From a virus (lineage: Duplodnaviria > Heunggongvirae > Uroviricota > Caudoviricetes), in the IMG/VR virus record IMGVR_UViG_2698536549_000028, positions 1 to 21,331 of that record: 21,331 nt of DNA; one strand, written 5' to 3'. Shown here piece by piece: positions 9,001-15,000 of this stretch. Within the stretch, counting starts at the first letter, position 1. Every line of letters begins with the position of its first letter. The position numbers are program-made.

Positions 9001-12000
9001 ACGAATTACAAATCCACGACCTGAAATATGGCAAAGGCGTCCGCATTGATGCAGAACAAAATGAGCAACTACAACTGTATGCTCTGGGTGCTCTCGAACA
9101 ATTCAGCATGCTGTATGACTTTGAGACTGTAAGATTATTTATTCACCAGCCAAGGCTCAACCACGTTTCAGAATGGTCTTTAACCGTACAGGAGCTTCAG
9201 TCTTTCGGTGAACGGGCACTGGAGGCCGCAACCAGTGCGATCCTTGTTCTCAATATTGCTGAATGCGAAGGCATTGAGACACTACCGCTGGAAAACTTCA
9301 TACCTGGAGAAAAACAGTGCCGCTTCTGTAAAGCAAAAGCTATTTGCACTGCCCAGAAAATGCAGCATTTACAAACAGCGGCCAGCGATTTTGAAGATCT
9401 GACAAAGCCTGTCAGCGAAATCATCACCAATGCCAGCGCACGTGTACCTCTGTTAACCATTGAGCAGCTTGCGGAGATCTATAGTCAGGCCGACTTTATT
9501 GAATCCTGGCTAAAGGCAGTACGGGACCGGGTTCACAATGAACTCAATGCCGGACATCCGGTACCGGGGTTTAAACTGGTAACAGGAAAACAAGGTAACC
9601 GGGCCTGGAGTGATGAAGAAGCCGCCCGCGCGCTGCTGAAAGACCAGTTCCGTTATAAAACCGAGGAGGTTTTCGATCTTAAGCTGATTAGCCCAACCAA
9701 AGCCGAAAAACTTATCAAAAAGGCCAGTCCGCGCCGTTGGTCAAAAGTCGAGGCACTGATAACACGAGCTGATGGTAAACCAACCGTCGTTCCCGAGTCG
9801 GACCCACGCCCCGCACTCAATATCAACCCTGTAAATGATTTCGACGACGTATCCGACGATACGCTCGCCGCAGACCTCATCTGATTAAAGGAGACTTTCA
9901 TGAAGATTAAATTAAATAACGTGAGATTAGCTTTTCCTGCTCTGTTTGAAGCTAAAACTGTAAACGGCGAAGGCGATCCGCGTTTCTCCGCAGTATTTTT
10001 AATGTCTCCCAAACACCCACAACTGGAAGAAATCCGTAAAGCTATGAAGCAGGTAGCGAAGGAAAAATGGGGGGAGAAGTGGGAGTCCATTTATAACCAG
10101 CTGGAGAAAAAACTCAATCTGTGCCTGCATGATGGTGATGAAAAAGCAGAGTATGAAGGCTTTCCCGGCAATTTCTTCCTGAATACTGCTAACAAAGCGC
10201 GCCCGGCCGTTCTTGATCGCGATCGTTCGCCACTGATTCAGGCTGATGGACGTCCCTATGCAGGGTGCTATGTAAACGCCGTTATCGATATCTGGGCACA
10301 GGACAATAATTTCGGTAAACGCATTAATGCCTCACTCGGCGGAGTCCAGTTCCTGCGAGACGGCGATGCATTCGCTGGCGGCGGAGTGGCAAGCGCTGAC
10401 GATTTCGACGATATCAGCGAAGGTGCTGATGCTGAAGCACTGATTTAATCCTGCTTCACAGACGCCCGGTTAAACGCCGGGTGTTTTTGCAAAGGGGAAT
10501 ATGCCCGGAGCTACCTGTATTGTTCTGGTTAGCACCCAGTCGCCCTGCTACCCCGATATTGACTCATCGCCCCCTTCCGGTTTATGCTCACCGAATCTCC
10601 CAAATGGAGATCGGGATTAGCACCCCGGAAGTTTAAGAGGCGACACCAGACGCGCCAGCGTCTTTTTTATTGTCGCAAGCTTTGCCACGTTCGCATTATG
10701 GCGGGCTGTGTGGGGGCGGAGAAATCCGCGCCGGTTCCTCTTAACCCGGTAGTGCTAACCCCGCACAGTTCGCCACCACGATGATTAGCACCTGATGGTG
10801 GCGATTAACTCAGTTAAGAGGAAAATCGTCATGAGTACCCAAATCGTATTCAAATCCCACGTTCTCGAAACGATCGAACATAACGGCAAAACTTGGTTTA
10901 CTGCGGCTACCCTAGCTACCGCGCTGGAATATTCGGATGCTCGCAGCGTAACTAACATTTACACCCGCAACACGGATGAGTTCACTCTCGGCATGTCCGA
11001 GGTAATCAAAATGGTTACCTCGGGGAATTTACAGGCCTCGCGCCGCATTTTCTCCCTCCGCGGTGCCCACCTGGTAGCTATGTTCGCAACAACTCCGGTA
11101 GCAAAAGAATTCCGCCGTTGGGTGCTTGACCTTATCGAGAAAGAAACCGCTGTTCCGCAATCCTCCACGATACTGGCGCCGCACAGGGAGTGTCTGCCGA
11201 AAATGGTTTACCATCACCGGAGCAAATACAATCCGTACAGGGCTTATGCATGGGACGGAGAGAAAAGCGTTTACGTCGGGTGCTATCCAACCGTGGGTGA
11301 GGCTGTTGCAGCTCAGGAACGCTTCTACCGGAATGGCAGCACGAAACGCATTCAGAAAGCGCAGCCAGCAGTCAGTGACGCAGAGAAGGAAATGTTCATC
11401 AACAATCTCCGCGCCGTCTGTCATAACTTCCGGCGCATCAACGAAATCTGGCGGGCGCAGTTAATGCCTGCTCTCGAAAAAATGGATTCGAAACTGGTTT
11501 ACCAGTTGCATGACCGCTTCAGCGACAGCATGTGCATTCTGCCGACCATAGAAGACCGCATCGGCAGATATATCCCACCCACTTTACCTCGTTAATCCTT
11601 CAGTTCGCCCCTGCTCAGCCAGGGGCTTTTTATCACCGTTTAATTTACGGAGGACTTCGTTTTGTCTGAAAACACTGATTTAAAAAAGCAAAGTATCAGA
11701 CCTGTAATATCATTTAGCCTGATACTTACTTGCATCTATTTTCAATAATTGGGAATTATACTTCTTTATAACGCCTCGTCCCGGAAAAAGAAACCAAAAC
11801 ATAAAAGCCATCCATATACACAGCAACATTAAAACAGCGCCCATTCCTATAAAAACAGCGCCATAATTTAACGACCAACAGAAAAATATCAAGCCATCAG
11901 CCAAATAAAAGATAGAAACAACTTTAGAACACCAGCGACATCGTTTGTATTTACCTTTGTAGCGTATAAAGAATCTATCGTATTTACACTGAATATGGGG

Positions 12001-15000
12001 TGCTAAATAACCCCACTGCCAAAACGGCATTTTCAATTCAGAATACGTTCTGACATAAATAACTAACGTTCTTAATTTCTGGCTACTTATACCTAATATA
12101 CTTTTTTTAACTTCTCTTTTGATTTCTGCCTTCATAAACTCTACATCAGAAGGCTCAATATGCTCCGGATAATTCTTCAGAATATGCGAGAATTTTGTTG
12201 TTTTCGGTAAAAACCAACTAGCATCTTTAAATAACTTATAAACACCGACTGGTGCAGTTATGGCTGAAATTATGACTCCAACAAGTGAGATAATATCTTT
12301 CGTATCCATGTAGCTAATTCTTCGGAGTAAATACAATGTCCAATATACTATGGGGCGACCTGGAAACTTTCTGTGAAATACCTATCAATAATGGCACCCA
12401 TGCGTATGCCGAAGGCGTTGAAGTGATGCTTTTCGCATGGGCTATCAACGACGGGCCAGTAAACGTGTGGGATATCACTGCCGGTGGTGGTATTCCACAC
12501 GGCTTATACGAAGCAATCGCAGACCCTGAAACCCTGCTTTATTTCCATAACTCTCACTTCGACCGCACCGTTCTGCGTTATGCAATACCGCGACTGGCAC
12601 CGCCAGTCGAACGTTGGCGCGACACGATGGTGCAGGCGCTGGCGCACGGTCTCCCGGGGTCTCTGGGGGAACTCTGCGAAGTACTAGGCGTCCCGCAAGA
12701 CAAAGCGAAGGACAAAGAAGGTAAGGCGCTGATCCAGCTGTTCTGTAAGCCACGCCCGAAAAACAGCAAACTGCGTCGGGCCACCAGTAAAACCCACCCG
12801 GAAGAATGGCGGCGCTTTGTTGCTTACGCCGGACTGGATATCGAGGCAATGCGCGAAGTCTATAAACGTCTGCCGAAGTGGAATTATCAGGGGACAGAGC
12901 TGGCGCTCTGGCATCGTGATCAGCAGATCAACGACCGGGGCGTCTGCATGGACATGCAACTCGCGCGCGCTGCGATCGAAGCGGTAGACCAGGAACAAAA
13001 GCGCCTGGCAAAGCGTACACAGGAAATGACTGATGGCGAAGTGCAGGCAGCCACACAACGAGACGCGTTGATTAAGCACATTGTTGAATCCTACGGTGTG
13101 GAGCTACCAGACATGCAACGCAGTACTCTGGAACGTCGTATTGCCGACCCCGATTTACCATCTGCCGTAAAAGAACTGCTGGCTATCCGCCTGCAGGCCA
13201 GTACTACCAGCACCAGTAAATACAAGGCACTGATGAAAGGCGTAAGCCACGACGGGCGCTTACGCGGTACGCTACAGTTCTGCGGGGCGTCACGTACCGG
13301 TCGTTGGGCCGGACGGCTATTCCAGCCCCAGAATCTTCCCCGCCCTTCACTAAAACAGGAACAAATAGACGAAGGCATCGAAGCACTGAAAGCCGGATGT
13401 GCAGACCTGCTGTTTGACAATATCATGGAACTAACCAGTTCAGCGTTACGTGGCTGCATTATCGCGCCAACGGGCAAAAAACTGGTGGTAAGTGACTTGT
13501 CGAACATTGAAGGCCGTATGCTGGCATGGCTGGCGGGAGAAGAATGGAAACTGAATGCATTCAGAGAGTACGACGCCGGAACGGGTCCGGACTTATATAA
13601 ACTGGCGTATGCAAAAGCTTTCGATATTGCACCAGATGATGTTGATAAACACATGCGTCAGATCGGTAAAGTCATGGAACTCGGTCTGGGTTATGGTGGT
13701 GGTGTGTCGGCCTTCATCACTTTTGCACTGGTTTACGGTCTCGATCTCGACGAGCTGGCGAACGCCGCACTACCAAACATTCCCCGCGATGTTATCCGCG
13801 AGGCGAAAAGCTGGTACGACGAATCGGTTAAACGCAAGTCAACCTACGGGCTTTCTGAACGGGTATTTATCGCCTGCGACTCACTTAAACGTCTCTGGCG
13901 CCGGGCGCATCCCGCGACCTGTGATTTCTGGTACGAACTAGAGCGCACCGTCCGCACTGCAATCGCCACACCGCAAAAAACATTGTATTGCGGTTATCTT
14001 AAAATCCGCCGCGATGGCGCGTGGCTGCGCATACAGCTACCATCCGGACGCGCTGTATGCTACCCGTCTCCGGTTATCGAAAAAGGGAATATCACCTATA
14101 TGGGTGTTAACTCTTATTCGCGTAAATGGCAACGACTCAAAACCTACGGCGGAAAGCTGGTAGAGAACGTCACCCAGGCGGCCGCCCGCGACATTCTGGC
14201 CGGAAACATGCCGCTTATCGAAGATGCCGGTTACAGCATTGTGCTGACGGTACACGACGAGGTGATCACCGAAGCACCTGACACAGAAGATTTCAACGAT
14301 AAAGCGCTTTCCGCGCTTCTCTCCACTAACCCCGAATGGGCGCCCGATATCCCACTGAACGCTGGCGGTTTTGAGGCGTACCGTTACAGAAAAGATTGAC
14401 TTTTATGCGAGTTTTTACAGATACTGACCGCACTACAACGTCAGCGGTCAACCGCACCCGATAGCTTTGCGGCTTTTTTATGCCTGTTTACAGGTATCGC
14501 CATATCAATGGCGGGTCGAGAGAGCCTAATACAATACCCTTTCGGGAAATACGCTCCGCCGTCTGACGCGGTAGTTGAAGCCCGCCACCCCACTAAGGTG
14601 GCAGTCAATACTAAAACGTCAGGAGTCATAATTATGGCTAATCAACTCATCCCCGTATTCAACGGCACTATCGCCAACGAAACAACTCTTTTCGTTAATG
14701 CCCGTGATTTACACGCATTTTTGGAAGTACGTCGTGACTTCTCTACATGGATTAAAAATCGCATAACAGAATACGGCTTTGCCGTTGATGTCGATTACAT
14801 TTTGGTTCACCAAAACGGGGGGATCAAAGGTCGAGGAGGTGATCGCCGTAGCAAGGACTACCACCTCATCCTCGACACAGCCAAAGAACTGGCGATGGTT
14901 GAGCGTAACGAAAAAGGCCGCCAGATCCGCCGATACTTCATCGAGTGCGAACGCAAACTGCACCAGCAGTCCTCCACAATATTAGCGCCGCACAGAGAGT

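Follow-up and report, generated by a model that had tools for sequence, protein, structure and literature searches.

T4 Imm, P22 SieA and HK97 gp15 are small inner-membrane proteins that mediate superinfection exclusion and that their phages can do without. The membrane effectors of abortive infection, including RexB, the transmembrane (TM) effectors of CBASS, Pycsar and Thoeris, and SLATT proteins, are multi-pass membrane proteins that depend on a separate sensor gene. Morons of the Hendrix type, known from lambdoid phages, are extra genes of deviant base composition and opposite orientation, which are present or absent between near-identical phages. Accessory genes have also been mapped to cargo hotspots of P2 and P4 elements: the psu-int interval is an established P4 defence hotspot (PMC9122126), and six of the eight tested P4 hotspot loci of unknown function were protective (PMC13586616). 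Here, we compare with these systems a gene in a 21,331-nucleotide (nt) stretch of Caudoviricetes DNA (IMG/VR record IMGVR_UViG_2698536549_000028, positions 1 to 21,331; hereafter the window), which comprises the half of an Escherichia coli Shiga toxin 2b (Stx2b) prophage devoted to regulation and replication. The gene, referred to below as the slot gene and its product as the slot protein, occupies a variable slot between the gene for a DUF2815 protein and polA. In our estimation, there is an even chance that this accessory, moron-type gene encodes a single-gene, membrane-acting anti-phage protein.

The slot gene lies in the part of the window with the lowest G+C (GC) content. With 300-bp scanning windows, the GC content is 0.33-0.35 across positions 11700-12299 versus 0.48-0.58 on either flank, and with 600-bp scanning windows the minimum of the whole 21.3 kb falls at 11641-12240 (0.335, against a mean of 0.489 and a standard deviation (SD) of 0.045, that is, about 3.4 SD). 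The next-lowest non-overlapping 600-bp window, at 2301-2900 (0.383), covers the intergenic region between the antiterminator gene Q and the primase gene and runs into the primase 3' end. The original prediction, made from the bare sequence, of a sharp drop over about 700 bp that holds a single minus-strand gene was thus borne out: the segment contains one long open reading frame (ORF), on the minus strand (Table 1). The longest ORF, which reads through 11710-12336, opens at a TTG, but the real start is the ATG at 12309, since both the RefSeq protein of the 99.8%-identical comparison locus L002 (WP_000379840.1, ‘hypothetical protein’) and all homologues begin there. This ATG is separated from that of polA by 26 nt, in line with the predicted distance of about 30 bp, and the spacer carries the polA ribosome-binding site (RBS; GGAG) on the plus strand and a weak RBS of the slot gene (GAAGAA) on the minus strand; RBSs were also found in slot-gene orthologues. 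The coding sequence has a GC content of 0.343, and 0.325 at third codon positions (GC3), compared with 0.538 and 0.558 for polA and 0.514 and 0.603 for the neighbouring BRO-N gene (GC3 of 0.56-0.60 in these neighbours). The ratio of non-synonymous to synonymous change (omega) of the slot gene is 0.32 against the allele of O8:H8-type prophages and 0.14 against that of Klebsiella aerogenes, with 0.04-0.09 for polA, and therefore the slot gene is under purifying selection, three to four times looser than that on polA. All 20 complete E. coli genomes with the gene have it unbroken, and the AT-rich segment is a genuine gene. Few genomes carry the window allele, which was found in 7 of 5,426 complete E. 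coli genomes, and a tblastn search of 50,697 phage records returned no copy of the window type.

The slot protein matches no Pfam or NCBIfam family, and a profile search against PDB sequences gave nothing under E 0.1. When a profile of 13 close homologues was run against 1.84 billion representative proteins, only 21 matches were obtained, which include full-length relatives of the allele found in vB_EcoM-606R2 (L001); P0033, a repetitive protein of 755 amino acids (aa), was dropped as a false positive of this search. All members have in common a length of 190-240 aa, the architecture described below and an invariant P176 after the third TM segment, and F113, R125 and N185 are near-invariant. 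Named members come from Escherichia, Klebsiella, Citrobacter, Enterobacter, Cronobacter and Pantoea only, all are annotated as ‘hypothetical’, and no consistent Pfam match was seen in the family. A remote link leads to PHROG 10579, of which positions 21-179 (of 182) match residues 38-192 of the slot protein (E 6.9e-4), and profile matches with P0034 and P0035 provide a second link. This PHROG has the same length and architecture and holds the same slot in 606R2 (that allele matches it with E 7e-107), but its identity to the window protein is about 17-23%, and as it is itself a family without a function, membership in it explains nothing. Addition of the distant members also raised the mean confidence (pLDDT) of the AlphaFold2 (AF2) model from 54.6, with the 13 close homologues, to 83.9, with a 21-sequence alignment, which supports true homology of the family. 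On these comparisons, the slot protein belongs to a small family without a name, whose members occur only on mobile elements of Enterobacterales and of which PHROG 10579 is a remote member.

In related prophages, DUF2815 and polA are nearly constant and the content between them differs. The O8:H8-type prophages (13 genomes) carry a slot allele that is 68% identical to the window gene, and alleles from K. aerogenes and Citrobacter prophages are 59% and 50% identical to the window protein; alleles of the window type fill the slot of L004, L005 and L006. A different minus-strand gene, for a 209-aa protein, has the same place in 606R2, in enterotoxigenic E. coli (ETEC) H10407 (L019) and in 65 more complete E. 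coli genomes. In a metagenomic contig and in other Klebsiella prophages the slot encodes P0027 (L012), P0032 (L026) and P0022 (L009), which have 19-24% identity with the window protein. Thus at least four very divergent subtypes of one family, with 17-24% identity, are found in the slot across E. coli, Klebsiella and Citrobacter prophages. Other prophages carry different cargo. In E. coli E62, an Nmad5 gene is followed by an unrelated minus-strand gene for an 89-aa protein with two TM segments (L020, 2169-2438), and in MS20658 Nmad5 is followed by one for an unrelated soluble protein of 229 aa (L021, 1744-2433, minus strand); neither of the two proteins matches Pfam or PADLOC. In twelve genomes BRO-N is followed by polA without any minus-strand gene in between, and in B379 the slot is empty save for a terminator. 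Since related prophages lack it, the slot gene is dispensable for the phage. Two of the prophages are decaying: in H10407 (L019, 1819-4569) polA is frameshifted, and in Citrobacter (L005, 5912-9173) polA and DUF2815 are split and the gene for DUF2800, the nuclease encoded upstream of DUF2815, is truncated, yet both prophages retain an undamaged slot gene. Variable content between conserved flanks, an operational criterion for hotspots in Rousset 2022, is what the DUF2815-polA interval displays, and it is best explained as a putative recombination hotspot in the replication module of enterobacterial temperate phages. As with the P2/P4 hotspots, the cargo is variable, low in GC, bounded by conserved flanks and swapped among mobile elements (PMC9122126, PMC13586616), but the present slot lies inside the replication operon of a different phage family. 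No description of the DUF2815-polA interval as a hotspot was found in the literature, searches with the protein accessions, the PHROG identifier and DUF2815/DUF2800 prophages yielded nothing about the slot gene, and a paper on the replication region of Stx phages does not mention a polymerase-type module (PMC8044961).

The original prediction took the base composition as a sign of recent horizontal acquisition, and on this point it did not hold. Every family member examined has a GC content of 0.29-0.36, whether its flanks are at 0.39 or 0.57, so the low GC content is a stable family trait and not a mark of recent transfer. Between the E. coli and K. aerogenes prophages, the slot gene, polA and the gene for the single-strand DNA-binding protein (SSB) are all synonymously saturated, and the family nevertheless sits in the same slot. 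In the comparison with the O8:H8 prophage, the slot gene has a synonymous divergence (dS) of 0.55, polA one of 0.06 and the SSB gene one of 0.16. Sliding identity is 70-88% in the slot, rises to 87-93% over the initial ~110 nt of polA and reaches 98-100% in the remainder of that gene. From the dS contrast and these steps we infer that the slot allele is older than its flanks and was exchanged by recombination in the conserved flanks, and that the start of polA seems to travel with the cassette.

A second event left a scar between the BRO-N terminator and the 3' end of the slot gene. Its first part, a remnant of the polA RBS and first four codons, matches the intact polA start of O121-type prophages, which have BRO-N and no slot gene; the pattern occurs only in L002 and L003, and in the latter, an O121 prophage, the polA ORF opens at the corresponding TTG. 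This part is fused to ...ACTGATTTAA, the end of DUF2815 that precedes the slot gene in the O8:H8 and 606R2 prophages, and the two parts overlap through about 9 nt of microhomology (CTGAA.ACA), which marks the junction. The scar identifies the gene order of the window (DUF2815, BRO-N, terminator, scar, slot gene, polA) as the product of illegitimate recombination between a phage of the BRO-N type and one of the slot-gene type. Judged from these comparisons, the recent events at the locus are cassette swapping and one illegitimate recombination, and not the arrival of the gene. The scar also has an intact Shine-Dalgarno (SD) sequence and TTG, and these open an ORF of 28 codons (11662-11748) that overlaps the 3' end of the slot gene in antisense.

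It had further been claimed that the polA promoter must lie inside the insert. The 26-nt spacer is too short for a promoter of either gene, and the plus strand of 11633-12335 has no sigma-70-like site scoring at least 9/12; two weak 8/12 sites, at 12145 and 12272, are unshared by other alleles. In O121 prophages the BRO-N terminator stands directly before polA, with a gap of ~35 nt, and in B379 another terminator does so; relatives without the slot gene generally have ~35-45 bp between terminator and polA, which leaves no room for a promoter. Because polA follows directly behind terminators in these prophages, its expression is independent of a promoter inside the slot gene, and the necessity that had been asserted falls away; an internal promoter is no more likely than read-through from the early operon, which runs in the same direction as polA. 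A promoter of the slot gene would have to lie in the first ~110 nt of polA (12336..12445). A conserved TATATT upstream of the slot gene is also codons 3-4 of polA and is confounded by coding constraint, and no terminator was recognised downstream of the window allele.

Three hydropathy peaks, at residues ~5-27, 129-148 and 150-176, indicate one N-terminal and two C-terminal TM segments, and the helices of the AF2 model at 3-29, 120-146 and 151-174 agree with them. Of the two terminal TM segments originally predicted, the N-terminal one therefore stands, and the single C-terminal one is replaced by a hairpin, which is the very confident part of the model. In addition, the model has four predicted cytoplasmic helices and a beta-hairpin (106-115) after TM1, and C-terminal helices after TM3. 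The ratio of K/R to D/E is 22/9 in the loop and 6/1 in the C-terminal tail, and the basic loop and tail are both placed in the cytoplasm on this ground, leaving nearly nothing in the periplasm. The slot protein is thus predicted to be an inner-membrane protein with three TM segments, in which a basic domain of ~100 aa (28-129) is probably cytoplasmic; the layout would be a very short periplasmic N-terminus, TM1, the basic helical domain, a tight TM2-TM3 hairpin and a basic cytoplasmic tail. The CRWC highlighted originally is present, at residues 124-127, but it is not conserved: C124 is replaced by Y in all homologues except the 98%-identical P0001, and C127 varies (C/Y/F). It was dropped as a functional motif for this reason.

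Fold searches of BFVD and PDB gave no significant match for the slot protein. In gross topology it resembles the stator proteins MotA, TolQ, ExbB and ZorA, which share TM1, a large helical cytoplasmic loop, a TM2-TM3 hairpin and a cytoplasmic tail, as judged from hydropathy, charge and the AF2 model. TolQ, ExbB and ZorA recur in the non-significant part of the Foldseek list (E > 2, TM-scores of 0.2-0.3), and hhalign sets P176...N185 on P187...N of TolQ (E 0.26; 0.52 against ExbB). However, the slot protein has no conserved polar TM residue, no match to PF01618 was found in the 21 members at E <= 0.01, and a TolR/ExbD/MotB/ZorB-like partner was missing: L002, L004, L006, L012 and L026 have no small single-TM neighbour, and for L007, L008 and L010 no Pfam partner domain is listed among the neighbours. 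Homology to TolQ/ExbB was rejected, the hhalign scores being non-significant, and the similarity is treated as a topological analogy. A holin was likewise set aside, as only the 606R2 allele matches phrog_2508 (E 0.37) and the gene lies in the replication module and not in a lysis cassette.

Outside the slot, family members occur in several unrelated settings. In a P4-like satellite, P0019 (30% identical) adjoins psu, with a PDC-M36A gene alongside; the slot protein itself resembles none of the tested P4 hotspot loci (PMC13586616). P0025 adjoins Dsr1 (E = 0) on an element resembling an integrative and conjugative element (ICE; L008), a homologue on a Pantoea plasmid adjoins the KAP NTPase gene PDC-S20, and P0030, from Cronobacter, is located at the end of a prophage, with umuDC nearby and an OLD/GajA-like ATPase-TOPRIM nuclease encoded two genes away. 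P0005 belongs to a CP4-57-like island, where genes for phage replication are absent from its neighbourhood. Members are located at or near umuD/umuC in three unrelated elements (L008, 6248-8618; L014, 530-2473, and L015, 175-2591; L025, 8001-13929). Co-location with recognised defence genes, also used as an operational criterion by Rousset 2022, is seen with Dsr1, PDC-M36A, PDC-S20 and the OLD/GajA-like nuclease. These contexts, together with persistence of the gene in decaying prophages, indicate an autonomous accessory gene of benefit to the host or the element, with a flavour of defence. The ICE-like element also carries a thymidylate-synthase-like gene by an aGPT-Pplase3/ADDT gene (L008, 3562-5450). 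The two are markers of thymidine hypermodification, which is usually a phage trait.

We consider it about as probable as not that the slot gene is an accessory gene of the moron type and encodes an anti-phage protein acting alone at the membrane. With morons it shares deviant composition, opposite orientation and presence or absence between close relatives, but it has no recognisable promoter or terminator of its own. In the proposed model, the early operon would read through polA antisense to the slot gene; in a lysogen this operon is repressed, and the slot gene would be transcribed from the prophage. The protein would then act on the cytoplasmic side of the inner membrane to defend the lysogen against other phages. 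It would either keep their genomes from entering (superinfection exclusion) or permeabilise the membrane after its cytoplasmic domain has sensed an infection (abortive infection); we regard the two options as about equally probable. Like T4 Imm, P22 SieA and HK97 gp15, the protein is small, phage-encoded, predicted to be in the inner membrane, and dispensable, but its non-membrane mass is predicted to be almost wholly cytoplasmic. Like the membrane effectors of abortive infection, it is a predicted multi-pass membrane protein found in defence contexts, but those need a separate sensor gene and the slot gene is solitary. Exclusion and abortive infection had both been suggested originally, and the suggestion has gained circumstantial strength from the dispensability of the gene and from relatives in hotspots or beside defence genes.

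Several observations weigh against a role in anti-phage defence. The guilt by association comes from about eight non-slot contexts, in which two of the neighbours are PADLOC ‘candidates’ only, and any protection conferred by the P4 locus could come from the neighbour and not from the family member. The recurrent adjacency to DNA polymerases (polA in the phages, UmuDC in L008, L014/L015 and L025) could point elsewhere. The best PADLOC v2 hit of the window protein (RTasSLATT, E 0.049) and the one match among the 21 family members (a CBASS 2TM effector, E 0.0015) were both rejected as chance, and the matches of the slot protein include no PHROG annotated as exclusion and no significant fold match to characterised exclusion proteins such as Imm, Sp, SieA/SieB, gp15 and Cor/Llp. 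Furthermore, no sigma-70-like site scoring at least 8/12 lies within 390 nt upstream of the slot gene, and with no recognisable promoter there, its expression in lysogeny is an assumption.

Among the alternatives, a membrane function that serves the element or the lysogen in some other way, such as barring conjugative DNA, giving immunity against colicins or contact-dependent toxins, or playing a role linked to SOS and UmuDC, is unlikely, though it has several points in its favour. Family members do reside on conjugative elements and plasmids (L008, L016, L018), three times they are directly downstream of or near umuDC, and known entry-exclusion proteins are small inner-membrane proteins. In SXT-type elements, an entry-exclusion gene is expected directly downstream of traG. 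In L016, however, the family gene lies away from this position, and the commonest homes of the family are the prophage slot and the P4 hotspot, whose tested cargo is mostly anti-phage (PMC9122126, PMC13586616). A contribution to the phage's own lytic cycle, as a membrane tether of the replication complex or in host take-over or lysis timing, would fit the fact that divergent subtypes keep the same place beside polA across genera, and one allele has the faint holin-like match mentioned above. We consider it distinctly improbable, as the gene is wholly missing from closely related prophages, runs antisense to the replication operon and is intact where polA is broken, and its relatives live in a genomic island, ICE-like and conjugative elements, a plasmid and a P4-like satellite, none of which has this replication module.

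We also have little confidence in the view that we are dealing with a selfish membrane toxin, or with an addiction module, that low expression or the antisense transcript of the early operon keeps under control. The hydrophobic, three-TM nature of the protein and the weak RBS of the window allele are compatible with it, and plus-strand read-through, if it occurs, would overlap the gene fully; yet 199 aa and a structured cytoplasmic domain are unlike type I toxins, and the family gene is solitary in many contexts, with no antitoxin gene. That the segment is a recent foreign insert now supplying the polA promoter is hardly credible: the strong GC contrast, the BRO-N terminator upstream of the insert and the weak plus-strand sites are what such an event might leave, but the same family holds the same slot in synonymously saturated prophages and is low in GC everywhere, other alleles do not conserve the weak sites, and in relatives without the gene polA lies behind the same terminator. 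Finally, and by analogy, the family might be a stand-alone, degenerate stator-like protein, with the topology of TolQ/ExbB/ZorA and the invariant proline where TM3 ends on the cytoplasmic side but lacking a TolR/ExbD/ZorB partner, that inserts into or poisons the energising Tol or Ton complexes of the host, shutting the inner-membrane route to superinfecting phages and colicins alike. This would make DUF2815-polA an unrecognised exclusion or defence hotspot within the replication module of Stx and other prophages; we mention this as a long shot.

Were the anti-phage reading correct, the slot protein would become the first to be characterised in a new family of single-gene, membrane-acting anti-phage proteins, and the DUF2815-polA interval a new cargo hotspot inside a prophage replication module. 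This prophage family is present in ~3% of complete E. coli genomes and includes Stx2b-converting phages. The result would extend the list of prophage-borne defences and inform the view of competition between Stx phages and other phages. Should the gene not be protective, the locus still illustrates that low GC content of a phage gene need not mean recent transfer, and that phage mosaics are built by cassette exchange and microhomology joins.

Table 1. Features of the window, with coordinates in nucleotides of the 21,331-nt stretch
Feature	Position	Strand	Remarks
stxA2b (Shiga toxin 2b, RIP domain)	277-1236	-	
tRNA-Arg(tct)	1328-1404	-	
Antiterminator Q	1574-1996	-	
Primase	2626-4887	-	Prim-Pol and DUF5906 by Pfam; VapE-domain in the L002 annotation
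NUMOD4 + HNH_3 homing endonuclease	8072-8590		Between the 300-aa gene and DUF2800
DUF2815 / Enc34-type ssDNA-binding protein	9900..10448	+	Pfam 3.9e-44; conserved left flank of the slot
BRO-N antirepressor-like gene	10795..11595	+	Pfam Bro-N 3.2e-10; plus-strand cargo of the DUF2815-polA interval
Strong intrinsic terminator after BRO-N	11607..11631	+	GCCCCTG-CTCAGC-CAGGGGC followed by TTTTT; conserved in L003
Scar, part 1	11649..11673	+	Remnant SD GGAGGA-N7-TTG TCT GAA AAC, equal to polA RBS and first four codons
Scar, part 2	11666..11683	+	Remnant of DUF2815 last codons and stop, CTGAAAACACTGATTTAA versus GCTGAAGCACTAATTTAA in O8:H8 and 606R2
Slot gene	11710..12309	-	199 aa; RefSeq WP_000379840.1 ‘hypothetical protein’; from ORF, RefSeq and homologue alignment
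Divergent spacer	12310..12335		26 nt between slot-gene ATG (12309) and polA ATG (12336)
First ~110 nt of polA	12336..12445	+	87-93% identical to O8:H8 prophage
polA, family A DNA polymerase	12336..14399	+	687 aa; Pfam DNA_pol_A 2.5e-14; conserved right flank of the slot

The surroundings of the slot gene are those of an E. coli prophage: positions 11000-13000 are 99.8% identical to the chromosome of E. coli JNEC-KY176, where the prophage is inserted next to yfhL. The replication module is based on a DNA polymerase and is not lambda O/P-like. A gene for a LexA-like repressor follows the primase gene in the gene order, and the rightward operon comprises a gene for a 300-aa protein, NUMOD4/HNH, the DUF2800 nuclease, DUF2815, BRO-N, the antisense slot gene and polA, and continues to an SNF2 helicase and the integrase. 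The NUMOD4/HNH gene is missing at its position in the 606R2 and O8:H8 prophages, and in the O121 prophage an HNH gene sits instead between DUF2800 and DUF2815; these HNH genes resemble free-standing mobile endonucleases.

A second variable site lies directly 3' of polA (14400-15404). In the window it holds an AntA-type antirepressor gene at 14508-15404, and at the corresponding site in 606R2 (L001, 8137-8898) and K. aerogenes (L012, 5093-5854) a TIR-like PDC-S35 gene is found. The polA of the O121 prophage (L003, 3620-6547) encodes 975 aa, as the polymerase is interrupted by an insert of ~288 aa with intein-like boundaries (…ELA/CIAPDT … IVHN/CGYGGG, the slash marking the boundary), and an HNH-like ORF is located in another frame (L003, 5050-5802). 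The RefSeq start of this polA is placed 93 nt too far downstream and omits the TTG start and the exonuclease motif GDLET.

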